From IMG/VR virus record IMGVR_UViG_3300050020_000030, positions 24,640-88,639 of that record: a DNA stretch of 64,000 nt; one strand, given 5' to 3'. Source of the stretch: a virus. The position numbers were made by a program, and so were the translations under genes. The notes under the pieces were generated by a model. The model searched no databases. It was not told where the DNA came from and worked only from the letters and a program-made list of their open reading frames with translations. Below, piece after piece: positions 566 to 62,109 of the stretch (its first letter is position 1; each line of letters begins with the position of its first letter).

Positions 566-1318
566 ATGTACGATATTTACGAATATACGAATCTAATTAA
601 TAACAAGAAGTATGTCGGGCAGAGTATAGATAAAGATACCCGGAGACGGCAGCACTTATACGAGGCTAAAAGGGGTTCTACCTGTCCCTTTCATCGTGCC
701 ATAAGAAAATACGGAATAGATAACTTCTCTTTTAGAATTATTGAATCTGTAGATACTCAAAAAGGCGCTGACGATCAAGAAGACTTTTGGATAAACGAAC
801 TAGACACGCGAAGCCGGGATCGAGGATATAATCTCAGGGGTGGGGGGATAGCAGGTCTCTTAGCTGAAGAGAGTAAGCAAAAAATCAGTAATTCTCTTAC
901 TGAGTACTACTCCGATGAAAAGAACCGCGAAACTATTAGGGATTCCTTGAAGAATTACTATGAGCAGAACCCGGATCGTGTAGAGAAGATACGGGAGGAG
1001 TCCAGAGAGAATATAAAGGAAAGAAAGAGAAATGACTTGGGTCAACTTCTTCCGTCTTCGGGTGTTCCCGTTCCCGAGAAGACTCCAGAGGAGAAAAAAG
1101 CTATTAATAAAAGAAAAAGCGAAATGATGCTTTCCAAGTCTCCCGAAGAAAAGGCTCGGATCAGCAAGAAGTTAAGTGATGCCCAGAAAGCCAGATATGC
1201 TGCTATGACCCCGGAAGAAAAAGAAGCCTTTTGTAAAAGAAAACGAGAGATTTCAGTTGCATATCACGCCAAAAAGAAATCAGGAATCCAATGCACAGTA
1301 GCCCAAGAAAATTCGTAA
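566..1318 (+). CDS. Free-standing GIY-YIG homing endonuclease
   Basis: DIYEYTNLINNKKYVGQS, R, E and GYN motifs; basic helical C-terminal repeats; SD AGGAGG. Confidence 0.9.
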   Translation: MYDIYEYTNLINNKKYVGQSIDKDTRRRQHLYEAKRGSTCPFHRAIRKYGIDNFSFRIIESVDTQKGADDQEDFWINELDTRSRDRGYNLRGGGIAGLLAEESKQKISNSLTEYYSDEKNRETIRDSLKNYYEQNPDRVEKIREESRENIKERKRNDLGQLLPSSGVPVPEKTPEEKKAINKRKSEMMLSKSPEEKARISKKLSDAQKARYAAMTPEEKEAFCKRKREISVAYHAKKKSGIQCTVAQENS

Positions 1319-1485
1319 TATATACGGAGGCTTCCGTTTCTGATCCAGCCTTCGTTGTTGTAGCGGAGGAAATTTTTCCAGATAAAAGTCCAGTCCGTTA
1401 TAGCGATTTCAGCGTTTTGAAATCCATCATTGCTCAAGTAGAAGGAACTCCCGGATACAACACCGGGGTGTATTTTAGGAACTAA
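1291..1485 (+). CDS. Hypothetical protein (64 aa)
   Basis: AGGA SD, operon position. Confidence 0.55.
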   Translation: MHSSPRKFVIYTEASVSDPAFVVVAEEIFPDKSPVRYSDFSVLKSIIAQVEGTPGYNTGVYFRN

Positions 1486-1495
1486 AAGGAAACCC

Positions 1496-1639
1496 ATGCC
1501 TGACGAAAAAGTTGTAGTTCCCGCAGTGGCTCCGGTTGTAGCGGCTCCCGCCGTTCCCGCCCCTGAAAAATATGTCACCCTCGAAAAGTTTGCAAAACTG
1601 GTAACTCTACTTGCCGATCATGGCATTCATCTGAAGTAG
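1496..1639 (+). CDS. Small Pro/Ala/Val-rich protein (47 aa, MPDEKVVVPAVAPVVAAPAV...)
   Basis: AAGGA SD, ATG 1496, TAG 1637-1639; below the ORF-track cutoff. Confidence 0.7.
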   Translation: MPDEKVVVPAVAPVVAAPAVPAPEKYVTLEKFAKLVTLLADHGIHLK

Positions 1640-1811
1640 GGCGGTTTCTAGCGGGATTCGACAGGGCCTATCCTTGGCCGGTGACTCCCTGAAGATTGTT
1701 TGGTCTCGCAAATACATTCCAAGGCTACCGTAGGCACACCGCCTACTATTCCGGAAAATGGACTAGCGGGCCAAGACCTTTCAAGACCTCCCGCAAAATT
1801 ACTCCCCGCCC
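1639..1811 (+). ncRNA. Candidate rod-shaped ncRNA (~173 nt)
   Basis: Nested stems GGGCGG/CCGCCC, GCGGGA/TCCCGC, CTTGGCC/GGCCAAG, TTGGTC/GACTAG, TTCC/GGAA, GTAGGC/GCCTAC fill the intergenic gap. Confidence 0.5.
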
Positions 1812-1831
1812 CTTCAATTTCTTGGAGACCA

Positions 1832-2023
1832 ATGAAAAAGATTTTTATACTGTGCTTCCTTGCGCTGATCCTCGCCTGTGGGATTAAGGCTAACGCTACC
1901 ACCTACTGTGTCCACTATACCAAGTGGACTATCGGTTTGGATGGAGTAGACGTGTACCTTATGGCGCAGTGCTCCGTTAATGGCATTTGGCAAGACCCTT
2001 ATGCCATCGCTCAAATCTACTAA
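1832..2023 (+). CDS. Small secreted protein with signal peptide (63 aa)
   Basis: GGAG SD before ATG 1832; MKKIFILCFLALILACGIKANA signal-like; two Cys in the mature part. Confidence 0.7.
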   Translation: MKKIFILCFLALILACGIKANATTYCVHYTKWTIGLDGVDVYLMAQCSVNGIWQDPYAIAQIY

Positions 2024-2033
2024 GAGGTAATAT

Positions 2034-2429
2034 ATGTCCGTTACTGCCCAAGCTGTAGGTTCCGTAAAACTCACAAATAACTTAACGGGCGCGAACTCGT
2101 TCACAACTCCTCTTAACCTCGCTTACGCCGGGACGCTCTCCTCGTATGCTCAGGGATTTGCTATCGCTTCTACCCCCACGACAATTTCAGTTCCTAATCT
2201 GAGCGGGCAGTTTCTGTACATCAAGAACCTCGCATCGATAGCGGGGCAGAATGTTTTGGTCACCTGGACGCCACAGGGCGGCTCTACAGAGTCAGCCCTT
2301 ACTTTGTCCGCAGGAGCCTCGATCATCTTCTGTGAAAGCGATACGACAAACGGGATCACCGCCCTTTCTCTTACCGCAACAGGAACTACCACCACAGGAA
2401 CCACCGTCGAATTTCTCTTGGTAGGATAA
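2034..2429 (+). CDS. Putative virion structural protein (131 aa, T/S/G-rich)
   Basis: GAGGT SD; composition and location. Confidence 0.6.
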   Translation: MSVTAQAVGSVKLTNNLTGANSFTTPLNLAYAGTLSSYAQGFAIASTPTTISVPNLSGQFLYIKNLASIAGQNVLVTWTPQGGSTESALTLSAGASIIFCESDTTNGITALSLTATGTTTTGTTVEFLLVG

Positions 2430-2431
2430 TT

Positions 2432-3046
2432 TTGGACATCCCGGTGCTCTACCTAATCCGTCACGGACAAACGAAGCCCAACGCCGCCAACCAGTTTCGT
2501 GGGGATTCCGATGTCCCTCTGACCCCAAAAGGTCGTAAAGACGCTGAGGACGTTGCCGAATTCCTAAAGGGAATCGAGCCTAGCTTTATTATATCATCGG
2601 ACAGGTCCCGAGCGATAGAAACTACGCAAATTCTTCAGAAATATTTTGATGCTCCCGTACATACGTCCCCCGAACTTCGAGCATGGGATGTGGGGGAATT
2701 TACCGGAAAGCCCCGCAATAAAGAAAACTTGGCGGAGATTCAGAAGTATATAGATGATCCTTGTCTCACCGTTCCGGGCGGGGAATCTTTAGCAGAATTT
2801 GCATCGCGGACTATGCCCGCGATTGATGAGTGTTTTCAACTAGCCAACTGCCACGGAGTGGGGTTCGTCGTCGCACACAGTTCGGTAATCCATCAACTGG
2901 GTTCTGATCTGTTAGGAAGCCACACGGCCCTAGTGGTAGACCCCGGTGGGGTTGTTCTGGTAGGACTATCTGGCGAGGGTTGTTCCGAAGCAGAAGCAAT
3001 CTTCAAACCAATGGAAAAAGAAGAAAATTCAGAAAGTATCTCGTAA
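2432..3046 (+). CDS. Histidine phosphatase (phosphoglycerate mutase superfamily)
   Basis: LYLIRHGQT, SSDRSRA, PGGESL, VAH motifs. Confidence 0.9.
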   Translation: MDIPVLYLIRHGQTKPNAANQFRGDSDVPLTPKGRKDAEDVAEFLKGIEPSFIISSDRSRAIETTQILQKYFDAPVHTSPELRAWDVGEFTGKPRNKENLAEIQKYIDDPCLTVPGGESLAEFASRTMPAIDECFQLANCHGVGFVVAHSSVIHQLGSDLLGSHTALVVDPGGVVLVGLSGEGCSEAEAIFKPMEKEENSESIS

Positions 3047-3086
3047 AGTAGTTCATAGTCGGTCTGACCGAATAAGGAGAAACATC

Positions 3087-3797
3087 TTGGCAAATTTTGA
3101 TACAATCGATGCACACGTAGGTGGCACAGGCCGCGAACAAATCAATGTTCTTACCCTTACCTCCGCAACTGAAACCCTTCTCTTGATGGGTACTGACACT
3201 TCCGGTACGACGGTCACCGCCGTTCTTGGAGTTCCCACAGGATCACGTACTGACGCCTCGGGACATACTCTTCTGTATGGTGCGGGTGCTCCCGTCGAGT
3301 TTAACCAGAATGGGGCAGTTAGCTCCCAGAGCAAGGGCCGCAAGGCTTCTGTGTTTACCGCGTCCCCGAATTTCTCTGTCAGTACGTTTGACTCTGGTCG
3401 TCCGTTCCGGATCAGACTTTTTGGGACCGCCTCGGTAGCCGCAGTTACTGTTACTACGGTAACTAACTCAATCGTGGTGGCAATTTATCAGGGAACTGCA
3501 ATCGTGGCTACTCGTCAGGTTTCTATCCTTACAGCGGGCGGAAGCTCTACTAGCACGACCGCTGCCGCAGTGGGTCAGTTCTTCTTGGATACCACCGTGC
3601 AGTGGGACTCGGTAAATCAGGTTCTTGGTGGCTGGTACGGCGGAAACGCTCTTAACACCCTCACCGCGTTTCACGCGCTGGGTAACGCCGTGTCGGTTAC
3701 TACGGCCAACAACCTTCAGTTCTGTGCGTCGGCTACCTTCGGTCACGCAGAGGGTGGTACGGTCACGGTTTCTGAATTCTCGATTGAACAGGTTTGA
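3087..3797 (+). CDS. Putative virion structural or decoration protein (236 aa)
   Basis: AAGGAG SD, TTG start, T/A/G/S-rich beta composition. Confidence 0.6.
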   Translation: MANFDTIDAHVGGTGREQINVLTLTSATETLLLMGTDTSGTTVTAVLGVPTGSRTDASGHTLLYGAGAPVEFNQNGAVSSQSKGRKASVFTASPNFSVSTFDSGRPFRIRLFGTASVAAVTVTTVTNSIVVAIYQGTAIVATRQVSILTAGGSSTSTTAAAVGQFFLDTTVQWDSVNQVLGGWYGGNALNTLTAFHALGNAVSVTTANNLQFCASATFGHAEGGTVTVSEFSIEQV

Positions 3798-3853
3798 TGA
3801 CTTTAGTAATTACTTTTGATTACTTTAATCTGAACAGTTCTCATAAAAGAGTA

Positions 3854-3890
3854 TCATTATACCGGAATTTGTGATATAATGGTATAATGA
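3854..3890 (+). promoter_or_regulatory. Extended -10 promoter giving a leaderless mRNA, flanked by a 10-bp inverted repeat
   Basis: TGaTATAAT(3872-3880), 6 nt, ATG 3887; TCATTATACC/GGTATAATGA. Confidence 0.65.
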
Positions 3891-4633
3891 GTAAAATTAA
3901 AGATTTGACTAATCAAAAGTTCGGGAAGCTGACGGCAATAAAAAGAATAGGGGCTACGAAGCAGGGGGCTTCCCTGTGGTTGTGTAAATGCGACTGCGGG
4001 GAAACTTCCGAGGTTCGGGCAGCAAGCCTCCTTAACAAATCCACGCAGAGTTGTGGATGTTCTAAAGTAGAAAACGCCAAGAAGAGGATTCTTGACCTTA
4101 CCGGACAAAAGTTTGGAAGACTCCTAGTAACAGGACCCACCGATAAACGAGTTACCGGAAGAATCTGTTGGGAATGCCTATGTGACTGTGGGAAAACAAA
4201 AGCAGTTATCTCTAACAACTTGGTACGAGGTATCGCTACGAGTTGCGGGTGCTATAATTTAGAACTTATACGAGGAAACAAATTTGCCTCCACTCTGGAG
4301 TCTGGGGTGAAATATCTTTTAGAAATATACAGAAGTAATGCTCAGACGAAAGACCGGAGCTTTTGCCTCTCTTTTGAGGAGTTTAAAAATTTAACCTCAT
4401 CTCCGTGCCATTATTGTGGGTCTATGCCCTCAAAGGTGGCTAAAAGTAGAAAAGCCCGCATTCCATATACGTACAACGGGATAGACCGGAAAAACAACGA
4501 TGTTGGGTACGAAATAGATAATTGTCTTCCCTGTTGTTCGTTCTGTAACCATGCTAAGCACATTTTATCCTATGAAGATTTCCTATCTTGGATTCAACGT
4601 TTAGTTCAATTTAACCTTCATCGAGGCAACTGA
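3887..4633 (+). CDS. Free-standing HNH homing endonuclease
   Basis: Two DLT(N/G)QKFG.L/C.CDCG/SCGC repeats; CHYCG...GIDRKNNDVGY...NCLPCCSFCN. Confidence 0.85.
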   Translation: MSKIKDLTNQKFGKLTAIKRIGATKQGASLWLCKCDCGETSEVRAASLLNKSTQSCGCSKVENAKKRILDLTGQKFGRLLVTGPTDKRVTGRICWECLCDCGKTKAVISNNLVRGIATSCGCYNLELIRGNKFASTLESGVKYLLEIYRSNAQTKDRSFCLSFEEFKNLTSSPCHYCGSMPSKVAKSRKARIPYTYNGIDRKNNDVGYEIDNCLPCCSFCNHAKHILSYEDFLSWIQRLVQFNLHRGN

Positions 4634-5277
4634 TGACTGACGATCCGTATGTAAAGCCTTCACACAACCTTCTGTTCTCTCCCACTCTTTGTGGTAAAGA
4701 ATGCCAAGCCTGCCGCCGCGTTCTTCCATACTCAATTTTTCCGACCGATAGTTCTATCAGGGATGGAAGGGCACTTATTTGTCCAAAATGTAAAGCTACT
4801 CCAAGGCTTTCTACAGCCGAGAATGCGTCTCGGGTGCGGGAGGCCAATTTTTCTTCAGACGCAGTAAGGAAACAGCGTCGAGAGAATGAGGAAGATTTTT
4901 TGGACAGGGACCCCCGAGGCCGGGTAATGTACCTCGGGGATTTTGTTCACAAGCTTGAACAAGCCGGGGTCGTAATTATTGTGGGCGAGGCCCACTTTGC
5001 TCAAGAGGTTAGTCTGTACGTTTTTGATCTTCGGCATCCCCCCACAAACGCCTTCTATGTAGGTTGGCTCCCAACGGGGTTGATTCAAGAATTCTCCGAG
5101 TACGAGTACAATAAGTACTCTATTCCCCAGTGGGAAACCGTTCACGGTTACCGGGGAGTTCTGAAAAATCTTATCAGCAACGGATACCTTACTGAAGATA
5201 AGTGTAGCAAAACCTTCGGGCCTTGCGATGAAAAAGTATGGGTCAAGGAAATGTTCGGGATTCGTAACAAGCAGTAA
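4633..5277 (+). CDS. Hypothetical protein with N-terminal CxxC...CxxC zinc finger
   Basis: CQAC and CPKC; coupled TGATG start. Confidence 0.7.
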   Translation: MTDDPYVKPSHNLLFSPTLCGKECQACRRVLPYSIFPTDSSIRDGRALICPKCKATPRLSTAENASRVREANFSSDAVRKQRRENEEDFLDRDPRGRVMYLGDFVHKLEQAGVVIIVGEAHFAQEVSLYVFDLRHPPTNAFYVGWLPTGLIQEFSEYEYNKYSIPQWETVHGYRGVLKNLISNGYLTEDKCSKTFGPCDEKVWVKEMFGIRNKQ

Positions 5278-24596: not shown

Positions 24597-27500
24597 ATGC
24601 CAGAAAACCCATTTACAAATCTATTATATCCCGGAGCACCGACTCCCGGAGAAAGTTCTCAAGGTACCACGCAGGGGGCGGGGGGAACTTCGTCTGGAAA
24701 TCCCTTTACAAGTATGCTCTACGGGCGGGGTACTGGCGGTTCTGGGCAATCGTCCCCCGGCTCTCCGCTTTCCGGAATTAACCCGGAGTCTGGACACGAC
24801 GAGTCTGACCGCTTCACTCAAGAAGACCCTAACGACAACTGGCTCCAAAAAGGCTGGTCTGCTCTAAACAAGCCGTTGAGTGAAACTATTGGAACATGGG
24901 TGACAGGGAAACCTTTTGGGCAATACCGTTCTGGGGCGGGCGGTCTAGAACGCGGAGCGGAGAAAGTTCTCTCCGGGATTACCTCCCCTCTCAGCTTACT
25001 GACTCTCGCTGCATTCGCACCAGCGAGCATTGGGGAATCCGTCGCCGGAACTGCTATCAAAGAAGGGCTGATGAGCGAAGTTGCTCCTCTCCTTGGCGAA
25101 GGTATGGACGCGGCTAAGGCCGGGAGTACAGTAGAAACCTACGCCAAAGCTTTGGGCGCGGCTAAGAAAGCCCTAGTAGCAAATACCAATATTGACGAAG
25201 CAGTAACCGCTGCTGGCATGGACCCGGCTCACTATACCAAGATTGGAGAATTCCTCCGGTCTCAGGGTCTCAAAGAAGACGATATGCTGGCCGAAGGTAC
25301 TGTCCGGAGAGTGGCCGCGCAAGGACTTAAAAAGGCCGGGGTATCTGCTGCCGGTTCCGTGGCTATCGCTAAAGGCGCGGAAACTCTAGTTAACGCCGGA
25401 TTTGCCTACCAGCAGATTCAGAGCGCCGTGTACTCTTTCCCCCGATTTACAGACCTAATGGAGCATGGACAATATGACGAGGCCGGGGAGTACCTTGTTA
25501 CCGGTGGGGCGGGAGTTCTGTTTGGCGGACTAGGAGCAGCACACTCTCTTCACAGTTTGGATACTCTGGTTCCCGGACTAAACGAAAAAGGGGAACTCCA
25601 GTATACCGAAGCTAACCGAAGTATGATGAATTTAGTCAAGGGCCGGGATGAAGAAATGGGCACGGGAAATACCCGCGTAAATACCCAAGCTAGCAATCTG
25701 CACCGAGAAGCCTTTAAACTTGCCGGGATAGATATCCCCGAATCTTTACAGTACAAAGAGGTTCCTTCTGATTTTGCGGGGCAGGCTAAACAATTCTTTG
25801 AGTCCCTCGTAGGGTCGGTCGCCAAAGTCAAAAGTGATGTACTCCACAACTCCCCGGCCAACGATCCGCGCTTACAGGCGTTTAGAAAGAAGATCAACTT
25901 TTCCATACAAGCCGGAGGGGATAGGAATTCTCTATTCCAGCAGGGAGATGCACTCGCACACGCTATGGGTCCGGAGGCGGAAAACGCTTGGCACGCATTT
26001 ACAAAAGACTATGTTAAGCCCGAAAGAACTGTAGAAAACATCATTGCTCGGCAAACAGAGGACTTACAACTAGTCAAGAAACAGGTAGCCACCGGGCAAG
26101 AGAACATCAAGTCTCTTTCAGACTCTGTGGCCCGGAAGACTCTAGATCGGGATAGGGCGAAAAGCCCGGAAGCGAAGGCAGAACACCAAAAAGTTTTGGA
26201 CGAGTTTCAAGACCAACTTTCGCAAGCTAGAGACACCCAAGAAGCCGCTCAGCAGAAGTTTGAAAGTCTCCGGAAGTGGGAAGGAAATCCTGATGAGGCT
26301 CTTAAGGCCCATCACCAAGACCTAGTACACCAGTTCTACGAAGCAAGGGAGCACCAGCCTTCTACCGAACCTTCTCCGGAAAATGGAACTGCCCTAGACG
26401 AGTTTAACCGCCGCGCTAATCTGATGGGTCGCGTAGGACGAGATGCCCAGATTATTCAGGAAGCCCACCCCGAATGGTTCAAAAATCAAGAACCTGTCGT
26501 TTCTTACCCAGAAAAAGGAACTGAAGGTAAAGTACCAACCTCCGAAGAGCAGACGGCGGAAGTAAGGCCAGAAGCTAAGTTACAGACTGTCCTCCCCGAA
26601 GACCTCGAAGGCTTTCAAGGAAGCAAGAACGCTACGTGGGAACAAGGCCCCCGCCATCCCGATCTTCCTGATGACCTCGAAGAACGCGTGGAAAAAGCCA
26701 AACCCAAGTTTCAAGAGATGGCTAGGAAAACTCCGAAGGAGTACCAGCACCGCCTAGATATCCTCAAGGGGTACGCTGATGCTGCGCGTGGACTCTCCCC
26801 GGAAGAACAGGCTTTCGCAGACAAGATCAAGGAAATGGATTTTGAAACCTGGGCTGCTGGAAGCAATAATAACCTCCTCAAAGGCTTCATAGAGAACCAT
26901 CTTTACCGCGACTGGAGTAAGGACTCCGGGGTAGGAAATGAACTCCTCGCACAGTCCCGTGCAGGAAACTTTGCTACTAATGTTATTCAGGCCCGCCATC
27001 GTACATTCCAAACCCCGCTAGAGGGTTTTCTCAAAACCAAGAGGATGACGAACTACGACCCAGTTGAGATGGTTCGCAAGAACGCAAACTGGATTGTAGA
27101 TGCTGCGGCGAATAGAAAAGTTGTCCATTCCCTCTTGAAGTCCGGACTCACCAACTCTAGGGGTATGCCCCTGTTTTTACTGAAGGGTTCCGGTAATGTG
27201 GCAGAGGGTGTGGATGGAAAACCGTCCGCTGCTATGGTTAACCCCGACAAGGTAATGCCTACGGATATTACTCCAGAACAAAAAGCCCGCATGTACGCCA
27301 ACGGGCAATGGGAGGCTTTACTCGCCACTAGGGAAGTTATAGATCGTACACCTTATGTATCTCTAGATAACATACCAGAGTGGATCAATTCTGTCAAGAA
27401 GAAAATCGCAAAGCTAGAACAAACTAATCCTCTCCTCGGAAATGGGATGACGGAAGCAGCCCGCCATAAAGCTAGCTGGGAAGAGATAGGAACTTTTGTC

Positions 27501-56859: not shown

Positions 56860-56888
56860 ATACTACCATTGTTCTTGTCCCGTGTCAA
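56860..56888 (-). promoter_or_regulatory. Early promoter (TTGACACGG class)
   Basis: TTGACA-17-TAGTAT with TG; -35 contains the upstream TGA stop. Confidence 0.75.
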
Positions 56889-57658
56889 GAGATTTCTAAC
56901 AGTTGGTTTTCTGCTTCTTGCTTTTTTCTAAGCCTAGCCGCCGCTCGTCCCAATGTGGAGGCCAGCACCCTCTCCGGGGAGTATTTTTTACCGCTGTTGG
57001 ATTTTCTAATCTTGTCACGGGTCTCCTCTGATGGAGTGTAGCTCGTTTTCCCTAGTTTAGATTTTCGTATCTTTTCTCTGGCCTCCTCCGAACAGGGATG
57101 TCCCGGCTTTCCTTTTCTCGATACAGACATCTTGTCTCGGGTCTCTTGCGTAACTATCCTATTTCGGTTAGCTGCCGCCAAAAGTGCGGCGTGCTCCGGG
57201 GTTCTGGGAGGCATTGGCTTTCCTAAACGGGCCTTGCTTTGCTTCTCTCTAGTTTCCGGAGTAGCTTTCCTTCCTCTGTTAGAGTTTCCTATTTTCTCTC
57301 TAGTCTCCTTGTTAGAAACAACACCATCTCCCCCGAGGGTACTGTTATACCCAAAAGACCTCTTATGTGAGGCGAACATCCATATAAAAAATCTCTCTGC
57401 CTCGTCTAGAGCGTGCTTGTCCGGACAACTGCACAGAAGAAAAGACTCGAAGTTTTCTGACCCGTACTTTCTGACCGCATTATAAAAATAGGTATTTATA
57501 ACCGATTTAGTAGTCAGAATCCCCGCCTTAGTAAAATGGTTTTTTACCCTCTTTTTCCAAGTTACAGTAGTTTGTCCTACGTAGATTTTCCTATTTATCT
57601 TGTTAAGGATGAGGTAGATACCCCCGTACTCCTTTTTATCCAAACTTTTCACTTTCAT
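56885..57658 (-). CDS. GIY-YIG homing endonuclease with NUMOD3 repeats
   Basis: GIYLILNKINRKIYVGQT, GYN; ETREK/ETRDK repeats. Confidence 0.92.
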   Translation of the reverse strand: MKVKSLDKKEYGGIYLILNKINRKIYVGQTTVTWKKRVKNHFTKAGILTTKSVINTYFYNAVRKYGSENFESFLLCSCPDKHALDEAERFFIWMFASHKRSFGYNSTLGGDGVVSNKETREKIGNSNRGRKATPETREKQSKARLGKPMPPRTPEHAALLAAANRNRIVTQETRDKMSVSRKGKPGHPCSEEAREKIRKSKLGKTSYTPSEETRDKIRKSNSGKKYSPERVLASTLGRAAARLRKKQEAENQLLEIS

Positions 57659-58542
57659 TTTGTTTCTCCGTAAAACAGTTCCACAATTTTAGGCACCCAC
57701 TCCCTGTCACACCCGAGAGTAGCCATACAGTAAATTCCTAAAGTTATCGAGGACGTACTGTTATGCCCCGCACGGTACCCAACCACCCTTTCCGGAATTT
57801 TTAGGTCGAGAAGCAGGGACGTGATGTTCCCTCGCCTAAAAGCGTGCGGGGACTTGTACTTAACCCCCGCCTTAGTGCACACCTTCTGGATCATCTTCAT
57901 CAGCTTTGTGGGATAGCACATTCTGTCGTCCGGTTTCCGGAAAATAAATTCCTCTGGCCCACCAAGAATCAGATGCTTGAGTTCCCGTACAAGTTCGTCC
58001 GAGATACATATCGATCTTACTGAGGAATCTGTCTTGGGGGAGTCCTGTAAAAATCCTTGGGATACGTCTCTCCGGATGTGCAGAGTATTCCCTTCAAGGT
58101 CCTGTGTTTGTAGCCCGAGGACTTCTCCTATCCGGACCCCTGTTTCGCAGAATAGCATGATAAGGGCTTTGTCCTCCCCTGTAGCCGCTTTGATTAAATC
58201 TCTCATCTCCTGGGTAGTATAGAAGTCCTGCTGCTTTCGTCTTTTGCGGGGCAAAGTCAGTCGAGGAAGTACAAATTCTTCGTCGGCCCACATGCAGATA
58301 CTCCGGAAAACGGAAATGTACCTGCGGATAGCCGCCGCACCTATAGTCATATTCAGCTTACCAATGTACCTCTGGATCAACTTCTTGTCTATACTAGAAA
58401 TTTTCAGGTGGCCGAATTCCAAGACAAGTTTTTGGATCAAGTAGTTTAGGTTGTAATACGTGCTCGCTTTCTTCATAGAAAGAACTTCTGTCTTATAGTT
58501 ATCCGCAGCGATCATAAAGATGGAAGACTCTCTAGATTTCAC
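57655..58542 (-). CDS. Tyrosine recombinase/integrase
   Basis: TGVRIGE, PKT, HAFRR, GH, Y catalytic residues. Confidence 0.9.
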   Translation of the reverse strand: MKSRESSIFMIAADNYKTEVLSMKKASTYYNLNYLIQKLVLEFGHLKISSIDKKLIQRYIGKLNMTIGAAAIRRYISVFRSICMWADEEFVLPRLTLPRKRRKQQDFYTTQEMRDLIKAATGEDKALIMLFCETGVRIGEVLGLQTQDLEGNTLHIRRDVSQGFLQDSPKTDSSVRSICISDELVRELKHLILGGPEEFIFRKPDDRMCYPTKLMKMIQKVCTKAGVKYKSPHAFRRGNITSLLLDLKIPERVVGYRAGHNSTSSITLGIYCMATLGCDREWVPKIVELFYGETK

Positions 58543-58889
58543 GGCTGTACCTCCCGTGTTACGTGCTTCCCATCTATCATGCAGGGAGCCCCGTGGTCGC
58601 TAATCTTCCAATGATATGGTCCACCCTCGAACCAGCAATTATGTACTTCAAATTGGGACGCTGTTGAGAACAGCTTTCCGTCTACCCAGGTGCCAGCATC
58701 GTTAACGCAGATAGCGTATTCTCCCGTTGAGCAGATCGCTTCAGGTTTAGGAGGTACTAGCCACTTTGAATGTACAATGTAGCCTGCCATTATCCTGTCC
58801 TCTCGCGGGCCGTGTACAAACGGCTCACACCCGTCTGCCAGTGCCAGCACCAAGCAAAGCCACAAGATTGTAAGTAGTATCTTGTTCAC
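58539..58889 (-). CDS. Putative lipoprotein
   Basis: VNKILLTILWLCLVLALADGC signal/lipobox-like; AAGGTG SD. Confidence 0.55.
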   Translation of the reverse strand: MNKILLTILWLCLVLALADGCEPFVHGPREDRIMAGYIVHSKWLVPPKPEAICSTGEYAICVNDAGTWVDGKLFSTASQFEVHNCWFEGGPYHWKISDHGAPCMIDGKHVTREVQP

Positions 58890-58979
58890 GGCTGCACCTT
58901 TCCTGCGCGGGCCGCAACAAACGTGTTTATAAAGCCGCGCATACCACCATCCGCTCACTTGCTTTCTTGCTCCATATTT

Positions 58980-59008
58980 AGAATACCACTATACCCTGCC
59001 CGTGTCAA
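58980..59008 (-). promoter_or_regulatory. Early promoter (TTGACACGG class)
   Basis: TTGACA-17-TATTCT with TG; -35 contains the pol TGA stop. Confidence 0.75.
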
Positions 59009-62000
59009 CCCTTAGTATAATATAAAGATTCCATACCTTCCGCGCCTAGTAAAAAATCTGATGCCCAAGGAGGAGCCGTTGTCATACACTCTACTAGCTC
59101 CTTTACTCCGAGGGGGGAGTCTTCATCCACTTCGGCCACGATTTCGTCGTGACAAGTTAGTACGATCTGGAAGCCCATATTTTTGGCTAGGTGCATTCCG
59201 TAAAACAGAATATCCCGGCAAAAAGCCTGCACGATGTTTTCGAAAGTCTTAGCCCCCCTAGTCTCTATACTCGTCCATTGGTGAGTGACTTGCGAGATGC
59301 CGTCCACACGGAGATCAGCTTTTCGGTAAGAATTACCCTTACGGGAGGTGGCGTCTACCCACGTTACCGAGGGGTTAATATAGTGCAGAGCGCGGCCCGA
59401 GGGTAGCCAGACACAGAGTACCCGGCCCTTCATTTCTAGGCGGATAGGCCCTAGTTCGGCGGTCGTATCGTTTTCCACGACTCTAGCGAAAGCCCGGTGG
59501 AGATCGTACCAGTACTGTTCTACCTCTCGGTATGTATTTCTGTAGACCTGTACCGCCTTTTCTGCATACTCTAAGGTAAGTTCAATACCCATATTTTCCG
59601 CGTAAGCAAGCAAGCCAGTCTTAACCGAGTTACCCTCTTCATCTGTAGTTTCTTCGCCCGCACTAAGTCCGTACCCGCAGTTATGAACAATCAGGGGACC
59701 CTTCTCCGTCAGGATCGTGAACCGACTCCTCGGACCCGAGTTTAGAATGTCGAACGTAGGCACCCCGGCATTGGGACTGTTCTGCAATGATCCTTTCTGG
59801 AGAGAATCCTTTGTTGATTTTTCGGCAGACGTTTCCGCACTCCCGGTACTGGGGGCAGTATCTTTCCCAGAACTCAACGGCAGAAAGTTTTTCTCCCAGA
59901 TAGTGGATGTAGCAAAGGTTTTCTTTATTCCTCCCATTAACTTTTGAGGTAACAAATCGAAGATTCCCTTTTTCATAATGGCCGTCATTATCTTCTCGGT
60001 CGATCTGGTACGCGGGCTTGTCATAGTTCTTAAGGGTAAGGCAGTGTCCGATGAAATCGTACACATCCTCAAATTTGCACTGAATCCCCCGTCCTCCGTA
60101 GCGATGAGCGGCAGAACCGACTCCCCGGCAGCGCGACAGAATCGCGTAGTACCTGTTCGCCAGCCGGTCAATAAGTTCTCTAGGTTCCGAAAATCTGACG
60201 TATACTCCGTTCTGGTCTTCCTGAACCTTTTTTCGGGCACAAGGGAGGCAACGACTTGTCTTACCCTTTTCAAGATTCTCCCTATTGACCAGTTTTTCGG
60301 AGCCGCAGACCCCGCATCGGCAAGGGTAACTGAGGTATTTTTTAACCTTCTGAGCGAGTCCGGTAGTAACCCACTCGCCAAATTTATAGCCGACCTCTCG
60401 TAGAGGCCACTTTGCGTCACTTCGCACGCTTCTTTCCACCCTTCTTCTGTAAGAATCCCGTGCTCCGGAGTAACATCTACTCGGAGCAGGTTGATAACTT
60501 TCTTGTCCCCCTGATACACACAACCATCGTGAGACACCCATTCACCGCCATCCCACAGCTTATCCTCTAAGGTAACGTTCACAATCTTCTTTACCCCGTG
60601 GTTGGTAAGGACCATAGTATCTTCACCGAAACATCCGAGGGTAGGCGCTTTAGCGTTTGTCCTAGCGGTCTTATCCCCCGCCTTATACGTCTCCCACAAC
60701 TCCTCGTAGGTAGCGTGACCATCCATTTGTGCTGCAAAAGCAATATAAGGGTCTCTCCCCTGACGAAACACTTCCAGAAGAGGTTCGCACTCTGTAACCC
60801 ATCCGGCTCCACGAGCTTCGATAGCGGAGAGATCGGCAATCACGAACTTCTTCCCCGGAGCCGCACACAAAATCGGGCGCAAGGCCGCACAAGCCACGTC
60901 TAGCGGGCTACTAAAATTTTTCTTGATTCCCTCATAATCCCCTGATTTTAATAGGGATAAAGCGAGATCGAATTTTCCGCCCACTTCCTTGGATGCCTTC
61001 ACGAGATTCTGCACTTGCACCAGCCCGGAAGTCATGCGCCCGGTTCTAGCCGCCCCCATAAAATGGAACAATCCGCGAACCCTACCATCTGACATGATAG
61101 AAGCCCGGTATGCGTCCAGCTTACTAACCGAACTTTTACTGAGTTGTAGCCTAAGTTCCAGAGCTTTCCGGCACTGTTCATTTAGATCACACTCCCCGTT
61201 CAAAGCCCGCTTGATAAAGGGCTTTCCGATAGACAGAAAAGTGTACCCGTTCTGTCTGGCATACGCCAGCACCTGAACCGGGGACTTGGGGTTCTTGATG
61301 CCTGTAAGTTCGAGAAACTGTTTGGTAAGAGCCGATTGCTCTTTTTCTACGACTATACTCGCCCCCTGTAGAAGCACCGAGTCCGTGTAGATTCCATAGT
61401 CGTTGATTTCTTCTGATAGCGCGAAGTTTTCATATTCCCAGTCCGGAAGAGGAAAGTCCTTTAGCCGGTGCAGGATTTCCCGCATAGCTTCTACGTCCGT
61501 TTTGCAGTAATCACAGAAGCGGGAATACTCCTTAACATGGGTATCCCAGTCACGATAGGAAGTCGGCTCAATTCCGAAGAGGGTTAGCTCCCCGCCAAAC
61601 CGAAGGGGCTTGCAGAAAAGATCGACCATGCTAACATCTTTTACAAAAAATTCGGTCAGCTTCTTGGACTTGATATCCAGAATCTTGCCCACTTTTTCCA
61701 GCTTACCGGGCATACTCATAGCCCGACTCAGGATCATCGGGTCAATAAATCTATCAACCGGAATATCAATATCAAAAAATCTTTTTATGGCAAGGCGTTC
61801 AAACTGACAATTGTGAGCGACGATTATTTGAAAAGGGTCCTGCAACCCCTGAAGTAAGTCTTCCGGGATAGGACCCTTGTGGCATTCCCATAGCTGTACG
61901 TCGGCATCCCCCCACGCATAAGCAAACATGAGGAGTTCGCAGCTAGGATGATCTATGTATTTGTATGCCCCAGTTGTCGAGATATCCAGTTCGTTCCGTG

Positions 62001-62025
62001 TTTCGAGGTCGATATGCAGAAGCAT
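59005..62025 (-). CDS. Family A DNA polymerase with intein
   Basis: IDLET, AHN..FE, TGR, DLSAIEAR (motif A), R..AK...LG|CGYG (motif B), HDEIV (motif C). Confidence 0.95.
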   Translation of the reverse strand: MLLHIDLETRNELDISTTGAYKYIDHPSCELLMFAYAWGDADVQLWECHKGPIPEDLLQGLQDPFQIIVAHNCQFERLAIKRFFDIDIPVDRFIDPMILSRAMSMPGKLEKVGKILDIKSKKLTEFFVKDVSMVDLFCKPLRFGGELTLFGIEPTSYRDWDTHVKEYSRFCDYCKTDVEAMREILHRLKDFPLPDWEYENFALSEEINDYGIYTDSVLLQGASIVVEKEQSALTKQFLELTGIKNPKSPVQVLAYARQNGYTFLSIGKPFIKRALNGECDLNEQCRKALELRLQLSKSSVSKLDAYRASIMSDGRVRGLFHFMGAARTGRMTSGLVQVQNLVKASKEVGGKFDLALSLLKSGDYEGIKKNFSSPLDVACAALRPILCAAPGKKFVIADLSAIEARGAGWVTECEPLLEVFRQGRDPYIAFAAQMDGHATYEELWETYKAGDKTARTNAKAPTLGCFGEDTMVLTNHGVKKIVNVTLEDKLWDGGEWVSHDGCVYQGDKKVINLLRVDVTPEHGILTEEGWKEACEVTQSGLYERSAINLASGLLPDSLRRLKNTSVTLADAGSAAPKNWSIGRILKRVRQVVASLVPEKRFRKTRTEYTSDFRNLENLLTGWRTGTTRFCRAAGESVLPLIATEDGGFSANLRMCTISSDTALPLRTMTSPRTRSTEKIMTAIMKKGIFDLLPQKLMGGIKKTFATSTIWEKNFLPLSSGKDTAPSTGSAETSAEKSTKDSLQKGSLQNSPNAGVPTFDILNSGPRSRFTILTEKGPLIVHNCGYGLSAGEETTDEEGNSVKTGLLAYAENMGIELTLEYAEKAVQVYRNTYREVEQYWYDLHRAFARVVENDTTAELGPIRLEMKGRVLCVWLPSGRALHYINPSVTWVDATSRKGNSYRKADLRVDGISQVTHQWTSIETRGAKTFENIVQAFCRDILFYGMHLAKNMGFQIVLTCHDEIVAEVDEDSPLGVKELVECMTTAPPWASDFLLGAEGMESLYYTKG
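59680..60633 (-). mobile_element. Intein in polymerase motif B (318 aa), dual-coding centre
   Basis: CFGEDTMVLT, VTPEHGI, TFDILNSGPRSRF...IVHN|C. Confidence 0.92.
59681..60427 (-). CDS. HNH homing endonuclease in an alternative (-1) frame inside the intein (start uncertain: GTG 60427 or 60439; frame open from 60541)
   Basis: GYKFGEW, CRCGVCG, SRCLPC, RC...RYGGRGI, IDREDNDGHYEKGNLRFVT...N.RN. Confidence 0.85.
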   Translation of the reverse strand: MRSDAKWPLREVGYKFGEWVTTGLAQKVKKYLSYPCRCGVCGSEKLVNRENLEKGKTSRCLPCARKKVQEDQNGVYVRFSEPRELIDRLANRYYAILSRCRGVGSAAHRYGGRGIQCKFEDVYDFIGHCLTLKNYDKPAYQIDREDNDGHYEKGNLRFVTSKVNGRNKENLCYIHYLGEKLSAVEFWERYCPQYRECGNVCRKINKGFSPERIIAEQSQCRGAYVRHSKLGSEESVHDPDGEGSPDCS

Positions 62026-62035
62026 TTTATCCTTT

Positions 62036-62109
62036 TGGTTCCGGGTCCACGAATCGAACGTAGGTTAGGAGGATCAAAACCTCCTGTCTTACCACTAAAC
62101 GAACCCGGA
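62036..62109 (-). tRNA. tRNA-Gln(UUG)
   Basis: Acceptor TCCGGGT/ACCCGGA, anticodon stem GGAGG/CCTCC with loop TTTTGAT, TTCGATT T-loop, encoded CCA, U1-A72. Confidence 0.93.

Follow-up and report, generated by a model that had tools for sequence, protein, structure and literature searches.

Evidence for an HNH-annotated endonuclease gene nested in the −1 frame of a motif-B intein in a phage family A DNA polymerase

We analysed a 64,000-nt stretch of virus DNA (the window), which spans positions 24,640 to 88,639 of the 88.6-kb IMG/VR virus record IMGVR_UViG_3300050020_000030 (estimated completeness 77%), and which carries an intein in its family A DNA polymerase (PolA) gene. Very probably, this is a class-1 intein at polymerase motif B with an endonuclease gene nested in its −1 frame. 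In the arrangement that we propose, the HINT domain of the intein is read in the polymerase frame and the middle of the intein would be a second gene, one frame back, encoding a 248-aa endonuclease of the type otherwise found as free-standing phage ‘HNH endonucleases’. This gene would have its own GTG start codon and Shine–Dalgarno (SD)-like site, at which ribosomes would initiate internally on the polymerase mRNA. Read in the polymerase frame, the same DNA would give a disordered linker of ∼190 residues, held free of stop codons by selection, that would leave the polymerase when the intein splices out. The nuclease would presumably cut intein-free polymerase alleles, with repair copying the whole element in (homing). 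The architecture, the selection acting on both frames, and the presence or absence of the element between near-identical alleles in relatives are established by the comparisons set out below.

The splicing blocks and boundaries are those given in a preliminary description of this DNA, which had been made from the sequence alone. The polymerase enters the intein at ...TLG/CFGEDT (a slash marks each junction), TPEH lies inside, and the intein ends at VHN/CGYG. The residues C1, T55 and H58 are invariant across the intein alignment, and the C-terminal junction, (H/S/A/L)N followed by C or S, is conserved across 53 host proteins, the window's own included. In an AlphaFold2 (AF2) model of the intein, residues 1–95 and 290–318 have pLDDT (predicted local distance difference test) scores above 95, and residues 99–286 score ∼33, below 50. 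When the confident parts were compared with solved structures using VIA-align, they matched NrdJ-1 (Z 13.5, root-mean-square deviation (rmsd) 2.2, 111 residues aligned), Mtu RecA (Z 13.3), Npu DnaB (Z 13.1) and gp41-1 (Z 13.1), with ∼111–115 residues aligned. The top 27 matches of the intein model, from Z 13.5 down to Z 8.2, were all intein or Hint-domain entries. The intact catalytic residues, the fold and the essentiality of the polymerase together suggest that the intein undergoes protein splicing.

The centre of the intein gave a different result. In the polymerase frame, it matched no Pfam family (E ≤ 0.1), no PHROG and no known fold, and it has no conserved columns in the intein alignment. 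The preliminary description had called this region Ser/Thr/Arg/Lys-rich and devoid of a nuclease motif, which is borne out by the family searches and by the pLDDT below 50. As the centre is predicted to be disordered and has no fold match, no nuclease fold is concealed in the polymerase frame; a true nuclease fold there, which would have spoken against an out-of-frame nuclease, was looked for and not found. The polymerase-frame product is thus modelled as a mini-intein with a disordered linker of ∼190 residues. A split intein was excluded, as the polymerase open reading frame (ORF) is continuous over 1006 codons.

The polymerase ORF itself matched Pfam DNA_pol_A (8e-09), PHROG 17 ‘DNA polymerase’ (6.8e-87) and phrog_7766 (1e-42); a blastn search of the gene against cultured phages gave no match. 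The insertion is precise: 954 nt lie in frame between the G and the C of motif B (LG/CGYG). In intein-free relatives the end of the N-extein is joined straight to CGYG, and the gap at the insertion point is 0 nt in the intein-free loci L087, L089, L090 and L106 (loci of relatives are numbered with the prefix L). The coordinates of the polymerase, the intein and the nested gene are collected in Table 1.

Table 1. Positions in the window of the polymerase gene, its intein and the nested gene
Feature	Coordinates	Strand	Basis
Family A DNA polymerase precursor gene, exonuclease + polymerase, 1006 codons, open through the intein	59005..62025	−	ORF list, Pfam, PHROG
N-extein, 464 codons, C-terminal end ...RTNAKAPTLG (motif B)	60634..62025	−	Junction alignment, 53 host proteins
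Class-1 intein, 318 codons: Cys1, block B TPEH, terminal His-Asn, +1 Cys	59680..60633	−	Sequence; AF2 model
N-terminal splicing domain, intein residues 1–95, polymerase frame	60349..60633	−	pLDDT 95–98
SD-like GAAGGGTGG, 8 nt before GTG 60427, made of intein block-B codons Glu-Gly-Trp	60436..60444	−	Sequence
Nested gene, probable 248-aa HNH-annotated endonuclease, GTG 60427 to TAA	59681..60427	−	PHROG 374, homologues, AF2, BFVD
Intein centre in the polymerase frame, ∼residues 96–289: stop-free Ser/Thr/Arg/Lys-rich linker, predicted disordered	59767..60348	−	pLDDT, no family match
C-terminal splicing domain, intein residues 290–318, blocks F and G, polymerase frame	59680..59766	−	pLDDT 96–97
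TAA stop of the nested gene, T of CAT + AA of AAC (terminal His-Asn codons of the intein)	59681..59683	−	Sequence
C-extein, begins CGYGLSAG = remainder of motif B	59005..59679	−	Sequence, junction alignment, intein-free relatives

On the same strand, the −1 frame overlapping the polymerase is open for 286 codons (59681..60541). This frame, and the origin of its stop codon in the last two codons of the intein, had been described previously and were confirmed in the ORF list and in the sequence, respectively. A nested stop lying 1 nt before the last base of the intein was also found in L001, L008, L009, L013, L015, L021 and L026, the letters of the stop codon having been read in L001. The profile searches of both frames that had been proposed as a check distinguished them clearly: in contrast to the polymerase-frame centre, the −1 frame matched PHROG 374 ‘HNH endonuclease’ (2e-21, residues 49–220) and two further PHROGs of the same name, phrog_3377 (3.6e-16) and 2081 (7.4e-06). 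It was also 43–62% identical to 11 database proteins of 169–244 aa. All 11 begin a few residues before the sequence KYPLRE.G..FGEW, which corresponds to GTG 60427 in the window and not to the upstream ATG at 60541. The AF2 model of the resulting 248-aa product has a mean pLDDT of 87.3 and is confident over residues 10–225, with scores in the high 70s at residues ∼70–80 and ∼160–170; the last 23 residues, which overlap the C-terminal region of the intein, are disordered in the model. A structure search of BFVD with this model returned 95 predicted viral proteins at E ≤ 1e-3 (best 3e-13), the top matches being free-standing phage proteins named HNH or homing endonuclease. The residues invariant in the family alignment (C60, R99, Y110, R113, I115, D143, R144, N147, Y151, N155 and N167) are all retained in the window's nested protein.

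We noted that the two frames show complementary signs of constraint. Over the overlap in the window there are no stop codons in the polymerase frame as compared to 21 in the third frame, in agreement with the earlier suggestion that the polymerase frame has been kept stop-free. When the HNH codons of the window were shuffled synonymously, a mean of 4.0 host-frame stops was produced and zero stops occurred in 0.3% of the shuffles; as codons that create such stops are depleted in the pool from the outset, this is a conservative null. ATG, TTA, TTG and ATA codons are absent from the nested gene, and the base after every one of its NTA and NTG codons avoids a polymerase-frame stop. Every nested locus among the relatives likewise has no host-frame stops over the overlap, with 2–23 in the third frame. 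Free-standing relatives have, on average, 7 and 15 stops in the two alternative frames.

The comparison of the window with L001 is the most direct evidence of which frame is conserved where. Over the intein centre the HNH frame is 66% identical, against 41% for the polymerase frame. This order is reversed in the N-terminal splicing block, with 59% in the polymerase frame and 27% in the HNH frame, and the same is true of the C-terminal splicing block, with 87% and 66%, respectively. The nucleotide differences in the centre, counted by HNH codon position, are 51/33/98 and those in the splicing blocks, counted by polymerase codon position, are 24/18/58; both peak at position 3. This switch in wobble phase is repeated in close pairs of relatives (2/2/12 for L036–L039 and 5/2/19 for L031–L032). 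Purifying selection is therefore directed at the endonuclease frame in the centre and at the host frame in the splicing blocks; a test for such selection on the HNH frame of homologous polymerase inteins had been proposed in the preliminary description.

The antisense strand of the nested gene, too, is open to an unusual degree, in the codon register of the HNH frame: at 59717–60403 (+) in the window, at 4127–4855 (−) in L001 (242 codons) and at 4007–4627 (−) in L002 (206 codons). The window's HNH frame contains no TTA, one CTA and two TCA codons. This antisense openness is probably a by-product of the avoidance of NTA codons that keeps the polymerase frame stop-free.

Two routes to the nuclease had been put forward, internal initiation and frameshifting, and the first is the better supported. 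A candidate start codon lies 11–16 codons before G..FGxW in 11 of the 18 rows of the alignment with a −1-frame gene (the window and 17 loci); in the remaining rows either the start lies further upstream or the exact motif is missing. A purine-rich stretch resembling an SD site precedes nearly all of the starts chosen (GGAGGA in L001, GAAGGATGG in L009 and L021, and GGAGGGTGG in L026, for example). SD-like motifs precede 17 of the 23 long ORFs in the window, so the host appears to use SD-led initiation. A scan for sigma-70 promoters found no promoter-like site in the intein upstream of the nested start, with counts at background level.

If the nuclease were instead made by −1 programmed ribosomal frameshifting, the product would be a truncated fusion of the N-extein, the N-terminal domain of the intein and the HNH protein. 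In the window such a shift could be read through, since no stop closes the HNH frame in the 38 codons upstream of GTG 60427, as far as 60541. However, there is no X_XXY_YYZ slippery heptamer between 60541 and 60427, all four candidates lying inside the HNH gene. Moreover, several relatives have a stop in the nested frame 0–11 codons before the start, in L021–L024 a TGA directly before the GTG, and the +1-frame gene of the sister clade described below could not be served by −1 frameshifting. We therefore regard frameshifting as most improbable. Given the conserved start with its SD-like motif, the upstream stops and the lack of an upstream slippery heptamer, the nested protein is most likely made by internal initiation on the polymerase mRNA.

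An overlap of this kind could also be produced by errors in the data, if a canonical intein with an in-frame HNH domain had acquired two compensating indels during sequencing or assembly. The intein-bearing stretch is present in peat metagenomes, however, and all sampled 31-mers of 59400–60900 were found in 18 peat runs, with 99% in two more (17 studies, 2018–2025). Independent assemblies of four peat runs (2018, 2020 and 2025) gave contigs that aligned with 0 gaps and at most 4 substitutions. The related loci considered next agree, in that 55 are out of frame and none is in frame. A search for fused longer homologues of the nested protein (435–2000 aa) gave none at E ≤ 1e-5, which is weak evidence in the same direction. 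An artefact is thus hardly credible, and the earlier argument against an assembly indel stands.

Searching IMG/VR for the pattern of the HNH alignment gave 461 relatives, and the context of the best 80 was analysed. In 55 of these 80, the relative is enclosed by a long PolA ORF whose intein junctions fall at the same site in motif B; the 55 loci represent 52 distinct host proteins (53 alignment rows with the window). The HNH gene is in the −1 frame, as in the window, at 24 loci, in the +1 frame at 31 and in frame at none. The remaining 25 are free-standing. In a tree of the HNH proteins, the +1-frame genes form one group (Shimodaira–Hasegawa-like approximate likelihood ratio test, 83) amid −1-frame lineages, and 13 of 14 free-standing genes form a separate group with a support of 100. 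Three state changes suffice among the −1, +1 and free-standing states, the minimum possible being two. Because the tree has no root and its deep branches are weak, it does not separate one capture from two; it fits an old association between intein and HNH gene with few changes of frame. The proposal that an HNH gene invaded a mini-intein out of frame is, on the strength of the free-standing relatives, plausible though not proven.

The sister clade with +1-frame genes (within L011–L080, for example L031, L036 and L040) has PolA inteins of the form CIAEG...LVHN/C, and a Met recurs early in the nested frame, in ...M(T/K)D(S/L)Q.... Prophage-like uncultivated virus genomes (UViGs) from isolate genomes account for several of its contigs. 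The hosts of some +1-frame elements (L012, L016, L017, L038, L056 and L062) are much longer, with 1206–1366 codons, and resemble the window polymerase only near the intein or over part of the polymerase domain; these may be fusion proteins or represent another polymerase architecture.

It is conceivable, although we consider it rather doubtful, that the out-of-frame layout is selectively maintained and not a frozen accident. Such a reading is favoured by the lack of any in-frame arrangement in the 55 nested loci, by the use of both alternative frames in two old sister lineages, and by the construction of the nested gene's ribosome-binding site from conserved block-B codons of the intein. If it were correct, selection would favour a nuclease made at low dose from a start of its own, independently of the amount of polymerase and of the splicing fold, and would act against in-frame fusion; the lineage would have retained this design despite a second capture or at least one switch of frame.

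The distribution of the element among closely related polymerases was determined at loci found with an alignment of five N-extein sequences. The clearest case is L105, the L002 contig with intein and HNH gene, compared with the intein-free L106: to either side of the insertion site, their extein DNA is 96.9% identical. A second pair, L097 with the intein and L102 without it, is 89% and 84% identical. The window's four closest polymerase relatives are also divided, with L087, L089 and L090 lacking the intein and L001/L088 carrying it. A homing element, or precise loss, would leave such a sporadic distribution at a single exact site. A search for related loci with the single N-extein protein found one identical contig that ends early and one distant relative. 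The former (L082/L086, IMGVR_UViG_3300037156_000084) is a 10-kb contig from another sample, with an N-extein 100% identical to that of the window, which ends before the intein; it is probably a fragment of the window's phage population.

Several observations weigh against the proposed reading, and the first group concerns the identity of the nested protein. It matches no Pfam (E ≤ 0.1) or NCBIfam HNH model. A phmmer search against PDB sequences found nothing at E ≤ 10 and a Foldseek search of the model against the PDB found nothing at E ≤ 1e-3. The best PDB match of the model, to the HNH restriction enzyme PacI over residues 73–171 (rmsd 3.2, 86 aligned), is the sole support from a solved structure for a beta-beta-alpha-Me fold, and its Z of 5.9 is within the chance range. 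The family alignment contains no invariant histidine, which makes the catalytic chemistry uncertain. In PacI, a tyrosine takes the place of the general-base histidine of HNH enzymes, which makes the PacI match a lead. The earlier designation as an HNH protein is therefore one of annotation, shared with PHROG 374 but not backed by a Pfam model or by an invariant histidine, and we describe the product as an HNH-annotated endonuclease, probably His-Me-finger-like, without claiming it as a proven member of the HNH family. An NCBIfam Cas5 match of the nested protein (E 0.13) was dismissed as chance.

The second group concerns expression and mobility. The SD-like motif is partly forced by the conserved Glu-Gly-Trp codons of the intein, so that finding it conserved does not by itself prove that it functions, and we infer translation of the nested gene from sequence features. 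The window's nearest intein-free allele is only ∼66–74% identical in DNA, too distant to argue for recent movement of the window's own copy.

These points bear on whether the nested ORF in the window might be an unexpressed or inactive relic, within an intein that is inherited vertically and whose polymerase frame stays open because the polymerase is essential. According to the homing-cycle theory, an element decays once it is fixed, so that such a state would be expected, and the distant intein-free allele, the lack of an invariant catalytic histidine and the indirect case for expression are all compatible with it. On the other hand, the nested frame is intact over 248 codons, is modelled with a pLDDT of 87, and keeps every family-invariant residue; the third-position bias in the HNH frame indicates purifying selection up to the split from L001. 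A relic is accordingly improbable, if less so than the frameshifting route, and an active nested endonuclease gene remains our preferred reading.

The neighbourhood of the polymerase contains further genes of interest. A tRNA-Gln gene (anticodon TTG, 62036–62109 (−)) is located 10 nt upstream of the start codon of the polymerase. Downstream, beyond a 139-aa ORF (58539–58958), is a tyrosine recombinase (57655–58542 (−); Pfam Phage_integrase, 1.6e-13). A 300-aa ORF directly after the polymerase in L001 (5599–6501) resembles this recombinase, as judged by eye only. A free-standing gene of homing-endonuclease type, with GIY-YIG and NUMOD3, is located three genes downstream of the polymerase (56885–57658 (−)) and is a second mobile-nuclease gene near the polymerase.

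The statement in the preliminary description that intein endonucleases are normally in frame with the splicing domain needs to be qualified, as exceptions have been published. The general architecture has already been reported for other inteins, and the element described here is one more such non-canonical intein. Inteins with an endonuclease ORF in another frame or on the opposite strand were noted by Gorbalenya 1998 (cited in bioRxiv 10.1101/2025.01.02.630785); a second preprint credits the same author with the first observation of an out-of-frame dnaX endonuclease (Gorbalenya 1998, cited in bioRxiv 10.64898/2026.09.14.751524).

The closest parallel is with the non-canonical inteins of actinophages, for which a gene resembling endonuclease VII has been described ‘in reading frame 3’ (Gosselin, Arsenault, Gogarten, bioRxiv 10.1101/2025.01.02.630785). 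Those inteins also have a splicing domain in the host frame, an endonuclease on the same strand in a shifted frame and an in-frame centre without recognisable structure, and the authors propose that a free-standing endonuclease gene invaded the intein. The hosts named there, with all non-canonical inteins pooled, are terminase large subunit, minor capsid, thymidylate synthase and DNA polymerase (Pol III alpha). In contrast, the nested gene here is of the PHROG 374 ‘HNH’ type and is located at PolA motif B in a peat phage. The layout is called rare in that survey, whereas it is found here in 55 of the 80 best IMG/VR relatives, in both alternative frames.

Three other systems can be compared. 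The cyanobacterial dnaX intein with an out-of-frame LAGLIDADG gene (Phillips, DeSimone, Gogarten, bioRxiv 10.64898/2026.09.14.751524) shares the overlapping frames, the disordered in-frame centre, the frame-dependent selection and the sporadic distribution, and secondary invasion of a mini-intein was proposed for it; it differs in having a LAGLIDADG endonuclease in the cellular dnaX gene, as compared to an HNH-annotated protein in a phage PolA. The ShiLan domain is an out-of-frame HNH hidden in the DNA methylase of a mycobacteriophage (Arsenault, Gosselin, Gogarten, Genes 2025, PMC11855218). As in the window, its HNH is in a shifted frame of an insertion that is open in the host frame, with a GTG near the 5′ end and a TAAC ending. 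However, ShiLan has no detectable splicing domain, so that the in-frame reading remains as a methylase loop, whereas here a complete intein flanks the filler; no ribosome-binding site was found for ShiLan, and leaderless initiation was proposed, whereas here there is an SD-like motif. Finally, the fractured genes described by Dassa et al. 2009 (PMC2677866) contain split inteins whose halves flank a free-standing endonuclease gene. They have in common with the window an endonuclease gene of free-standing type flanked by an N-terminal and a C-terminal splicing part, but there the host gene is in two ORFs joined by trans splicing, and here the polymerase frame is continuous.

Relatives of the nested protein are already present in cultured phages. 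In a tblastn search, the window's HNH protein matched inside the annotated DNA polymerase genes of 93 cultured-phage records, from phages of Salmonella, Escherichia, Shigella, Streptococcus (Javan prophages), Pseudomonas and others (for example, Dhillonvirus and Shigella phage EP23). Many of these genes are annotated as ‘intein-containing DNA polymerase precursor’. The matches are only ∼27–35% identical to the window's nested protein. We found no publication describing the PolA motif-B/HNH intein family. The record of Escherichia phage Pubbukkers annotates the polymerase only. That of Sodalis phage SO-1 (NC_013600, L084; gp38/gp39) places an ‘HNH endonuclease’ coding sequence at 2333–3091 inside the polymerase coding sequence at 849–4037, with a GenBank note that refers to a ‘type I self-splicing intron’. 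This note is what would favour an insert that is a group I intron with a homing endonuclease ORF. Against it are the open polymerase frame, the intein junction residues and the HINT fold, and a search of 59000–62100 for Rfam families found none at E ≤ 1 except the tRNA. An intron is thus scarcely worth entertaining for the window, and the SO-1 label has probably been given in error to an intein that contains an overlapping gene.

The arrangement that we favour, an intein with a nested endonuclease gene, would place two selfish functions, protein splicing and a separate homing nuclease, in two frames of one stretch of DNA. Gene callers that bar overlaps on the same strand miss the nuclease, and most records name the polymerase only, with one referring to an intron. 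Relatives in cultured phages of E. coli, Shigella and Salmonella make expression, splicing and homing directly testable, and the family as a whole is a large natural data set on the mutual accommodation of two overlapping frames. Its layout supports the entry of free-standing endonuclease genes into pre-existing mini-inteins.

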